Assembly: GCA_963807605.1 (NCBI GenBank)
Contig: CAWECG010000003.1
Coordinates: forward strand, 288,001-352,000
DNA from: Candidatus Bathyarchaeota archaeon
GTDB taxonomy: Archaea > Thermoproteota > Bathyarchaeia > 40CM-2-53-6 > RBG-13-38-9
Length of the DNA stretch: 64,000 nt
Direction: 5' to 3'
The notes beneath the pieces were generated by a model. It made no database searches, was not told the origin of the DNA, and worked only from the letters and a program-made list of their open reading frames with translations. Positions 37,838 through 57,665 of this stretch are shown one piece after another (position 1 is the first letter of the stretch; each line of letters starts with the position of its first letter). The position numbers were made by a program, and so were the translations under genes.

Positions 37838-37936
37838 TGGTGGGGTCGGTGGGATTTGAACCCACGACCTCGCGGGTTCTTGAAGCCTCGGGGCTACCCA
37901 AGCCGCGTAGCGTAGACCAGACTAGCCCACGACCCC
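37838..37936 (-). tRNA. tRNA-Pro(TGG) with a 20-nt canonical 37/38 intron (37877-37896); CCA encoded
   Basis: GGGGTCG/CGACCCC acceptor, CGCGG-CT-TGG-G[intron]C-CCGCG, GTGGG-TTCAAAT-CCCAC; central helix CTTG/CAAG. Confidence 0.93.
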
Positions 37937-55673: not shown

Positions 55674-56384
55674 CTATGGCAGAAGTCTATAGTAGACCCG
55701 TCTGTTGTTCCTACCTTTGTTTTCGGCTTTTAGAAACTCTATTTGGCCAACCTCTCTTAGGCTCCGGACGTGGGTTCCAGCGTCAGCCTGTTTATCGACA
55801 CCCTCTATCTCCACGATCCTTAACTCGGATACTTGCGGTGGCAAGGCTTCAGCCATCTTGATTACGCCTGGAATCTTGAGTGCTTCCTCGCGTGGAAGAG
55901 TGTAGGTTTTTACTGGCACATCCTTCTTGAAGAGTTGATTGGCCTTATCGATACATTCCATGAAGAGATCTCTATCAAAAATCTCCAAGTTGAAGTCAAA
56001 TCTAGACTTTTCCATGGTCAACTCGTTTCCAGTGACCAGTGCGTTTGTCTTATTGCAGAGAACTGCTATTAGAACATGGGCAGCCGTGTGGCTTCGCATC
56101 ATGCGGTATCTTCTGTTCCAATCAATCTGGCAGTGTAGTGTATCCCTAATTCTTAGTCCTTCTCGATCGACCTCATGAGAAATCTCGCCGAAGGACTTTC
56201 CGACATTCATGACATTGAAGACTTCACCTTTTCTTGTCATGTCTCCTACATCATTGAGTTGACCTCCGCCTTTAGGGTAGAATACTGTTTGGTCCAGAAC
56301 TACGTACTTGGAGTCGCTGATCTTGGTGATTGTTGCATCGCATTCTTTCAGGTACGCGTCATCCATGTAAAGCAGCTTGCTCAT
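55674..56384 (-). CDS. alaX: Alanyl-tRNA editing protein AlaX-M
   Basis: LYMDD, T.FYP.GGGQ..D, MRSHTAAH, ADAGTHV. Confidence 0.92.
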   Translation of the reverse strand: MSKLLYMDDAYLKECDATITKISDSKYVVLDQTVFYPKGGGQLNDVGDMTRKGEVFNVMNVGKSFGEISHEVDREGLRIRDTLHCQIDWNRRYRMMRSHTAAHVLIAVLCNKTNALVTGNELTMEKSRFDFNLEIFDRDLFMECIDKANQLFKKDVPVKTYTLPREEALKIPGVIKMAEALPPQVSELRIVEIEGVDKQADAGTHVRSLREVGQIEFLKAENKGRNNRRVYYRLLP

Positions 56385-56465: not shown

Positions 56466-56566
56466 TGGAGCCCCGGCTGGGCTTCGATCCCAGGACTTAC
56501 GGCTTACGAAGCCGTCGCTCTGCCAGGCTGAGCTTTCCCGCCTGTACTATCTTCAGGAACCGGGGC
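56466..56566 (-). tRNA. tRNA-Thr(CGT) with a 24-nt intron at non-canonical position 8/9 (56535-56558); CCA encoded
   Basis: Spliced sequence: GCCCCGG TA GCTC AGCCTGGCA GAGC G ACGGC TT CGT AA GCCGT AAGTC CTGGG ATCGAAG CCCAG CCGGGGC T CCA; strict BHB at the junctions. Confidence 0.9.
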
Positions 56567-56672
56567 GGAAAAACCGGGGCACGACGATCTTGATTGGTGA
56601 TACTCATAAGGATTTTTAGGTGCGTTCGATTGGGATCCATTCAGTATTCCATGAACGTGGACGAAGATCCCC

Positions 56673-57665
56673 ATGTCAAGCAAACAAGGATTGGGCGAGA
56701 GAAGAATCATTGAGGTTATAGTTGATCTGCAAGACAAGATGCGCAATAACCCTCTGCCGTTCGGTGACGATGTCTCGGCTGTGCGAATAGGTGGAGGAAA
56801 ACTGGCCGTCTTAAAATGCGACATGCTAGTAGGGCTCACAGACGTTCCCAAGGGTATGAGCCTCCGGCAGGCCTCAAGGAAAGCTGTTGTCTCTAGCGTA
56901 AGCGACTTCGCCGCCAAAGGAGTTCAACCTCAGGCTCTGCTGGCCTCGCTGGGATTGCCCAGAAGATTTGGCTATGAAGATGTCAAAGAGATCGGTTTGG
57001 GACTCAACTCCGGCGCAAGAGAGTATAATACGTACGTCCTAGGCGGGGACACTAACGAATCTACAGATCTCACCGTAGATGTTTCCGCTTTCGGCATTTG
57101 CAGAGAGAAGGAACTTGTCCGTCGTGACACGGCAAAGCCAGGAGACGTGGTCGCAGTGACAGGCGACTTCGGACTGACTGCGCTGGGTCTGAGAGTGACT
57201 AAGGACCACTTGGAAGTTCCTCAGAAACTAAAGGAGGCAGCAGCTCACTCGATATACATGCCTAAGGCGAGACTGATTGAGGGTCTGGCACTTGCCGGGA
57301 ATCACCTCGTTTCCGCATCCATTGACTCGAGCGACGGCCTAGCTTGGAGTCTGTATGAACTTGCTAGATCAAGTAAAGTTGGATTCGAGATCGAGAACCT
57401 ACCGATTGATAGAAAAGTCGAAGAATTCGCTCTCAGAAATAACCTAAGTCCTTCGGATCTTGCTCTGTACGGTGGGGAAGAATACGAGTTGGTCGTAACC
57501 ATTAAACCCACAATGCTCGGAAAAGCCAAGAGGAAAGTCTCCGGACTAAAACCTATAGGGAGGGTCACGACGGAGCACGGTAAGATCAATCTGAAATCGG
57601 GCGGTGAGATCCATGAGATCGCGCCTAGAGGCTACGAGCACCTGGTGCACGGAGGATCTTCCTAG
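56673..57665 (+). CDS. thiL: Thiamine-monophosphate kinase
   Basis: GDDV, CDML, SDFAAKG, GGDTN, IDSSDGL, GGEEYEL, GYEH. Confidence 0.93.
   Translation: MSSKQGLGERRIIEVIVDLQDKMRNNPLPFGDDVSAVRIGGGKLAVLKCDMLVGLTDVPKGMSLRQASRKAVVSSVSDFAAKGVQPQALLASLGLPRRFGYEDVKEIGLGLNSGAREYNTYVLGGDTNESTDLTVDVSAFGICREKELVRRDTAKPGDVVAVTGDFGLTALGLRVTKDHLEVPQKLKEAAAHSIYMPKARLIEGLALAGNHLVSASIDSSDGLAWSLYELARSSKVGFEIENLPIDRKVEEFALRNNLSPSDLALYGGEEYELVVTIKPTMLGKAKRKVSGLKPIGRVTTEHGKINLKSGGEIHEIAPRGYEHLVHGGSS

Follow-up and report, generated by a model that had tools for sequence, protein, structure and literature searches.

How can a tRNA be spliced when its splicing signal and its acceptor stem lay claim to the same nucleotides, and why does the leader of such a gene carry a second copy of the 5' acceptor strand? 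Both questions are raised by the minus strand at 56566-56466 of the window (the whole 64,000-nt stretch of Candidatus Bathyarchaeota DNA that was analyzed), which holds a Bathyarchaeia tRNA-Thr(CGU) with a 24-nt BHB intron at position 8/9. Read in order from 56580 to 56466 on that strand, the gene presents a 7-nt copy, a 7-nt spacer, an 8-nt exon 1, the 24-nt insert, and exon 2. We consider it likely that the leader is a selected cis RNA chaperone that enables the splicing of an intron overlapping the acceptor strand.

Gene anatomy and promoter

The features of the locus and its neighbours, by position and strand:

56603-56617, minus: BRE/TATA-like element, an A-run followed by CTTATGAG at 56610-56603; it gives the putative start site
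56574-56580, minus: candidate stand-in acceptor strand, a 7-nt copy of nt 1-7 complementary to nt 66-72, identified by conservation, predicted pairing, and the genome control
56567-56573, minus: variable spacer, 7 nt, able to pair over the 3' splice site in a competing helix
56559-56566, minus: tRNA-Thr exon 1 (nt 1-8), with nt 1-2 in the outer helix, nt 3-6 in the central helix, and nt 7-8 in the first bulge
56535-56558, minus: intron at 8/9, 24 nt, identified by Rfam, ARAGORN, and ortholog comparison
56557-56554 with 56544-56541, minus: inner helix of the intron, 4 bp
56540-56537, minus: central-helix partner within the intron, CGGG, followed by the bulge AA at 56536-56535
56466-56534, minus: tRNA-Thr exon 2 (nt 9-76), with the anticodon CGU at 56508-56506 and an encoded CCA at 56468-56466
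56470-56476, minus: 3' acceptor strand (nt 66-72), the target of both copies
55674-56381, minus: AlaXM alanyl-tRNA editing protein, the downstream neighbour (299.9 bits against a cut-off of 300)
56673-57665, plus: thiamine-phosphate kinase ThiL, the divergent upstream neighbour, given for context

The Rfam tRNA match at the locus begins at model position 9 (at 56534), and ARAGORN did not call the tRNA-Thr(CGU) gene on the unspliced window. With 56558-56535 removed, ARAGORN reported a 77-nt tRNA-Thr(cgt), the 5' end of which is that of the intron-less Thr(UGU) paralog. The BHB consists of a 4-bp central helix (nt 3-6, CCCG, with CGGG at 56540-56537), two 3-nt bulges (GT/T and AA/A) in which cutting after the second base gives U8-A9, and flanking helices of 4 bp on the inner side and 2 bp on the outer side (G1C2 with G10C11). 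The letters of the inner helix vary across orthologs while its pairing is kept, and the central-helix partner in Asn genes is GGCG. Judged by these elements, the insert is a complete member of the archaeal BHB (hBHBh') tRNA intron family. The host genome encodes RNase P RNA and RtcB, together with two EndA-family proteins from separate genes; the first scores above the endA cut-off, the second is beta-like, and the pair would assemble as (alpha-beta)2, a type that cuts non-canonical introns.

Other gene architectures were set aside. A split, trans-spliced tRNA was ruled out because the gene is contiguous behind one promoter, the leader is predicted to pair with nt 66-72 instead of with a trailer, and exon 1 and the intron together build the BHB. 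A permuted tRNA was ruled out by the normal gene order. A riboswitch or regulatory leader was rejected, with no Rfam match beyond the tRNA and a spacer that is not conserved.

The BRE/TATA-like AAAATCCTTATGAG that had been read upstream of the gene is present at 56616-56603, and 30 nt separate its TATA-like box from the leader copy and 44 nt from G1; the promoter score was generic and blind to the copy. The box lies 30-31 nt before the copy in 10/10 same-family Thr orthologs, 30-35 nt before it in 37 of 39 Asn genes, and 28-33 nt before the start of the leader helix in 43/46 Lys and 16/16 Tyr genes. The distance from TATA to helix start was 28-35 nt in most genes and that from TATA to G1 ran from about 35 to 54 nt, while in intron-less Thr genes with a clear box TATA lay 33-39 nt before G1. 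Placement was ambiguous in two AT-rich genes with degenerate copies, and a regression of TATA distance on copy distance (slope 2.25) was distorted by AT-rich outliers, so that the distributions were used instead. The spacing puts the copy at the predicted start site, in agreement with the earlier proposal that transcription begins just before it, and the copy probably stands at the very start of the transcript.

Distribution of the leader copy

The exact 9-mer at 56580-56572 is found again 14 nt downstream, at 56566-56558, as the initial annotation had described, although the conserved part of this duplicate spans only 7 nt (56580-56574) rather than 9. Copy positions 8 and 9 each agree with the true strand in 4 of 15 Thr genes, and position 8 does so in 0/40 Asn genes; because these positions rarely match in relatives, the TT of the 9-mer is incidental, and because the letters flanking the 7-mer do not match the true strand, the conserved unit corresponds exactly to the acceptor strand. 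Across the genome, 0.1% of positions have a GC-rich 9-mer repeated in the 30 nt upstream and 2.8% have an all-GC 7-mer so repeated, and shuffling the leader of the tRNA-Thr(CGU) gene gave p = 0.006.

Ortholog genes were gathered by intron pattern, blind to the leader. Among the 19 Thr genes carrying the 8/9 intron (CGU and GGU, from five families in two orders), the 7-mer was fully pairable with nt 66-72 in 16, whereas no pairable leader copy was found in 14 Thr genes without the intron, counts that overstate independence because genes within a family are kin. This bears out the expectation that copy and intron would co-occur. The remaining three, all Thr(GGU), have degenerate copies with 5-6 of 7 positions, and in metagenomes 30 of 31 distinct Thr 8/9 copies were fully pairable. 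The spacer between copy and G1 varies from 3 to 20 nt in Thr and Asn relatives, and its sequence varies as well.

A few Thr genes depart from this pattern. L011 (G011:C72, Thr CGU) has an intact upstream copy but GCCCCGCG (G7C, U8G) as its true strand, with substitutions there that complement changes in its intron; its sister L010 (G005:C18) has a G-A mismatch in the central helix. These two may reflect a broken gene, an assembly error, or another route. In the intron-less Thr(CGU) genes L019, L020, and L022, a 6-of-7 look-alike occurs 24 nt before G1, and it is probably not transcribed, being 11 nt after the TATA box.

The association extends to other isotypes. The genome that carries the tRNA-Thr(CGU) of the window also contains an Asn gene with an 8/9 intron, the leader of which copies its own, different acceptor strand, and the copy was fully pairable in 40/40 Asn 8/9 genes from three families. 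A helix between leader and 3' end, 7-11 bp long overall, was found in Lys and Tyr genes with 9/10 introns, reaching at least 7 bp in 45 of 46 Lys and at least 9 bp in all 16 Tyr genes, and it was present in 6/6 Lys genes in other classes. Covariation of the copy with the acceptor sequence, which the initial annotation had named as a check, was thereby observed across four isotypes. Exact copies were seen in only 12/46 Lys leaders, and most of the others carry C-to-U changes that retain G-U pairs; from these alignments, selection is seen to act on complementarity, not identity. Pairing with N73-CCA is a further property of Lys and Tyr leaders, whose letters there follow the discriminator, and 35/46 Lys and 16/16 Tyr leaders pair into position 74 or beyond. 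No duplication of the 5' end could generate letters that complement N73-CCA; this largely disposes of a relic and indicates pairing at the RNA level.

Among the Lys leaders L214-L263, 12 are exact without CCA pairing and 33 are wobble-bearing and reach C75 or beyond, never both, as if the strength of the Lys helix were capped, a pattern that is confounded by clade and not shared by the Tyr leaders, which have both. A search for intron-less Asn controls found one match, without a tRNA 3' end, and so yielded no same-isotype control for Asn; order-wide, this match made up the 1/105 genomes with an uninterrupted Asn 5' end of this sequence. Families without the Asn 8/9 pattern must differ in sequence or carry another early intron. 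Within the Asn gene L054 (G294:C189), a segment of the D-arm is repeated around NN, which looks like an assembly artefact.

The genome itself provided a further control, in which 36 tRNA genes were scored, leaving out Cys, one Leu, and Asp. The duplex between leader and 3' end measured -16.7 to -24.4 kcal/mol in the Thr, Asn, Lys, and Tyr genes, the four that have an 8/9 or 9/10 intron, and no better than -11.6 kcal/mol in the other 32, so that strong pairing was found in 4/4 with such introns versus 0/32 others. The Tyr gene of this set has an intron in its T-loop as well. The chance that the top four would be those four is 1 in 58,905, with the reservation that two of them were not picked blind. 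Leader shuffling gave p <= 0.006 for each, and each of the four leaders pairs best with its own 3' end. That the leader element is real, conserved, and under selection for pairing is, in our judgment, very probable.

Predicted folding and alternative readings

In ViennaRNA folding, which ignores enzyme binding and co-transcriptional order, the precursor without its leader adopted the true acceptor stem (P about 0.97) and the BHB did not form, whereas with the leader the copy took the 3' strand (P about 1.0), as had been anticipated for this pairing. The BHB probability was near 0 without the leader in every gene set folded. With it, the central helix reached P of 0.71 in Lys and 0.77 in Tyr genes (versus 0.01 and 0.00 without), and the cost of the BHB was lowered in 57 of the 58 8/9 genes, the strict-BHB medians falling from 11.8 to 7.8 and from 14.5 to 6.6 kcal/mol and still remaining positive. 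The mean BHB probability with the leader was 0.21 for Thr, 0.01 for Asn, and 0.00 for the tRNA-Thr(CGU) gene in the window, whose best fold is more stable than the BHB by about 8 kcal/mol even when the leader is present. Replacing the copy alone changed the cost in this gene from 7.9 to 9.0 kcal/mol, a loss of only about 1 kcal/mol of the gain, and about 2 kcal/mol was lost in the medians. The cost stays high here because a helix formed by the spacer over the 3' splice site wins. The idea that the copy stops the acceptor helix from out-competing the BHB was consequently upheld as regards the occupied 3' strand and the falling cost, but not to the point of making the BHB the lowest-energy fold in this gene.

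A leader clamp at another site was found in the Nitrosocaldaceae genes L328-L338 (G702:C1 at about 261,470-261,630, plus strand), which encode a CAU tRNA with a 9/10 intron. The proteins of this genome match Ca. Nitrosocaldus cavascurensis, which has been grown in enrichment culture. An acceptor copy was looked for in the leader of the Ca. Nitrosocaldus CAU tRNA and none was found; in 10 of the 11 family members the leader pairs with the D-stem 3' strand and the anticodon 5' strand over 11-14 bp (-18.5 to -22.8 kcal/mol, with G-U variants), and the eleventh has a short acceptor copy instead. This leader abolished the predicted acceptor stem, and in eight of those ten the probability of the BHB helix at 60 C rose from 0 to 0.49-0.83. 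As modelled, it is a second solution to the same folding conflict. The feature common to both solutions, a leader clamp on exon 2, favours a chaperone that also tethers over masking of the 3' end alone.

Masking alone would make the leader a checkpoint, hiding the 3' end from RNase P, tRNase Z, the CCA enzyme, or the synthetase until splicing is complete, with the BHB forming and being cut co-transcriptionally without help from the leader. We regard this as unlikely, even though the pairing covers N73-CCA in Lys, Tyr, and some Asn leaders and the copy changes the BHB energy little in this gene, because Thr leaders pair to N73 at most, the Nitrosocaldus leader leaves the 3' end free yet favours the BHB, and the BHB is nearly absent from leaderless folds in every set. 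The checkpoint and the chaperone are compatible and not mutually exclusive.

The initial annotation had also described a second helix and a possible two-state precursor. The complementarity is present, between TTTTCCGCC (56572-56564) and GGCGGGAAA (56542-56534), and the resulting spacer helix over the 3' splice site is part of the minimum-energy fold of the precursor. As a regulated switch, it would constitute a splicing-off cloverleaf with an extra arm, opened before EndA acts, and we consider this quite improbable. Same-family Thr(CGU) genes have the helix as well, and there is a loose correspondence between spacers and bulge letters (cognate versus permuted, p = 0.011 in 25 sequences), but that value rests on two clades, the permutation on the genome set gave p = 0.13, and the helix here is no better than that of shuffled spacers (p = 0.11). 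Moreover, it is confined to Thr(CGU), being absent from Asn and Thr(GGU), is incompatible with splicing, and comes with no Rfam regulatory match and no evident ligand or signal. A functional two-state switch is weakly supported, and we treat the spacer helix as unexplained. In Thr(GGU) and many Asn genes (L035-L038, L044, and L051-L080), the 3' end of the spacer adds pairs with nt 12-16 to the BHB outer helix, which is not so in Thr(CGU) of the window's family.

It is very doubtful that the upstream copy is the true 5' exon and that the spacer with the second copy forms a nested intron, removed second. The copy does sit at an ordinary G1 distance from TATA, and in L011 the second copy is damaged and the first intact; however, a full 4-bp central helix can be drawn in at most 7 of 55 genes in any register and in none for registers 6-9, the base after the copy is not U8, and Lys leaders abut or overlap G1, where their G-U substitutions would enter the mature tRNA. 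A functionless relic of a short tandem duplication at intron gain is equally hard to credit, since, easily as exact direct repeats arise and although some copies are decaying (L026, L034, and L036), the seven letters persist in families whose spacers differ in both length and sequence, the same association appears in at least four isotypes and at two intron positions, and the N73-CCA complement stands against it.

Proposed route to the mature tRNA and related systems

For a leader acting as a chaperone, the events would run as follows. Transcription would begin at or just before the copy, as the TATA spacing suggests. The 8/9 BHB, as the sequence shows, uses nt 1-8 and excludes the acceptor stem. 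According to folding models, and with strong backing from the comparison of genes, the copy would pair with nt 66-72, and with N73-CCA too in sister genes, leaving nt 1-8 free. We propose that G1, not being at the foot of an acceptor helix, thereby avoids an early cut by RNase P, and the leader would delay this enzyme for as long as the copy is in place and G1 is hidden. In M. kandleri, end-trimming comes before splicing (PMC3695527); such an order would lock the precursors considered here in the acceptor stem. By analogy with established BHB chemistry, the two-subunit EndA, for which the enzymes are encoded, would then cut both bulges, and the helix of leader and 3' strand would tether the 8-nt exon 1 until RtcB joins U8 to A9. 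This tethering after cleavage is likely a second job of the leader; the outer helix alone contributes -0.5 kcal/mol, and the leader duplex has a median of -17.7 kcal/mol.

The last step is the weakest. The true strand would replace the copy by near-isoenergetic branch migration, tertiary contacts of the L-shape would lock it, and RNase P would then remove the leader. Bare cloverleafs with the copy or the true strand are isoenergetic (-33.9 versus -33.7), but the full ensemble after splicing keeps the copy on the 3' strand (P 0.99) and does not show the exchange after ligation that had been envisaged. Since the copy stays bound in the model, hand-back would need tertiary folding, an enzyme, or irreversible RNase P cleavage, and it would be harder still for Tyr leaders with their 10-11 perfect pairs. 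Taken as a splicing aid, the copy described in the initial annotation is thus backed by co-occurrence, covariation, start-site position, and predicted pairing with the 3' strand, and not by its hand-back and switch components.

On balance, we lean toward a general, undescribed archaeal class of cis pre-tRNA leader chaperones: wherever the BHB uses the acceptor strand, the leader would clamp exon 2, reverse the trim-then-splice order, tether the halves, and give way by strand exchange, the clamp being a precondition for introns near the 5' end. As part of the same reading, Bathyarchaeia and other classes would have the clamp on the 3' acceptor strand and CCA, and Nitrosocaldus would have it on the D/anticodon strand. 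If this is true, tRNA 5' leaders, usually seen as disposable, have a required structural job, which would explain both why introns are tolerated where splicing signal and acceptor stem exclude each other and why the processing order must be reversed for such genes. For annotation, the rule would be that of two candidate 5' ends the downstream one is real, which helps with genes missed by standard finders.

A disposable strand that, by pairing with mature RNA, blocks a premature helix and is later displaced is familiar from rRNA, in U3 snoRNA and in bacterial rrn leader helices. Those chaperones differ in substrate and machinery, and the leader here is 7-11 nt long, acts in cis, and is specified gene by gene. 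Trans-spliced split tRNAs (Nanoarchaeum equitans, Caldivirga; PMC4090602, PMC3218864) resemble our case in that flanking pairing holds the pieces for EndA and ligase; in them, however, leader and trailer come from separate transcripts, pair together, form the BHB, and are removed by EndA, whereas the tRNA-Thr comes from one transcript, the leader of which pairs with mature tRNA well away from the BHB and would presumably be taken off by RNase P. Permuted tRNAs (Cyanidioschyzon merolae, Thermofilum pendens; PMC3218864, PMC3978253) share the precedence of splicing over acceptor-end maturation and an unusual promoter distance as a clue, but the tRNA-Thr has normal gene order and implies no circular intermediate. 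Synthetic leader riboswitches acting on RNase P (PMC8925977) likewise let leader pairing govern pre-tRNA 5' processing; they are engineered and ligand-dependent, and the leader here has no aptamer.

The non-canonical BHB introns of Thermoproteales, Thaumarchaeota, and Asgard (PMC4090602; PMC8450103; bioRxiv 10.64898/2026.10.13.758758) share the motif, the cut rule, the two-subunit EndA, and RtcB. An acceptor-stem intron at 3/4 is known in Thermoproteales, and the list of intron positions in the same review, which ends in 'etc.', does not include 8/9 (PMC4090602). The word 'leader' is absent from the Asgard tRNA intron preprint (bioRxiv 10.64898/2026.10.13.758758), and a leader standing in for the acceptor strand was not described in the literature searched, the primary surveys of Marck and Grosjean 2003 and Sugahara 2008 lying outside it.

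Other tRNA genes and database records also drew attention. Outside the window, a tRNA-Asp(GUC) (G000:C3 at about 457,900-458,090, plus strand) has each acceptor strand interrupted by an intron (at 4/5 and 68/69); two leader bases are borrowed for the first BHB, and no acceptor copy was obvious. Inside the window, the tRNA-Pro at 37838-37936 (minus strand) carries an intron near the anticodon arm, and its anticodon was given by ARAGORN as ggg without intron mode and as tgg with it. Most close homologs of the neighbouring ThiL that carry a name come from Bathyarchaeia; three matches among them (P0018, P0025, and P0028, 63% identity) are labelled '[Eubacterium] cellulosolvens' and are probably mislabelled archaeal bins.
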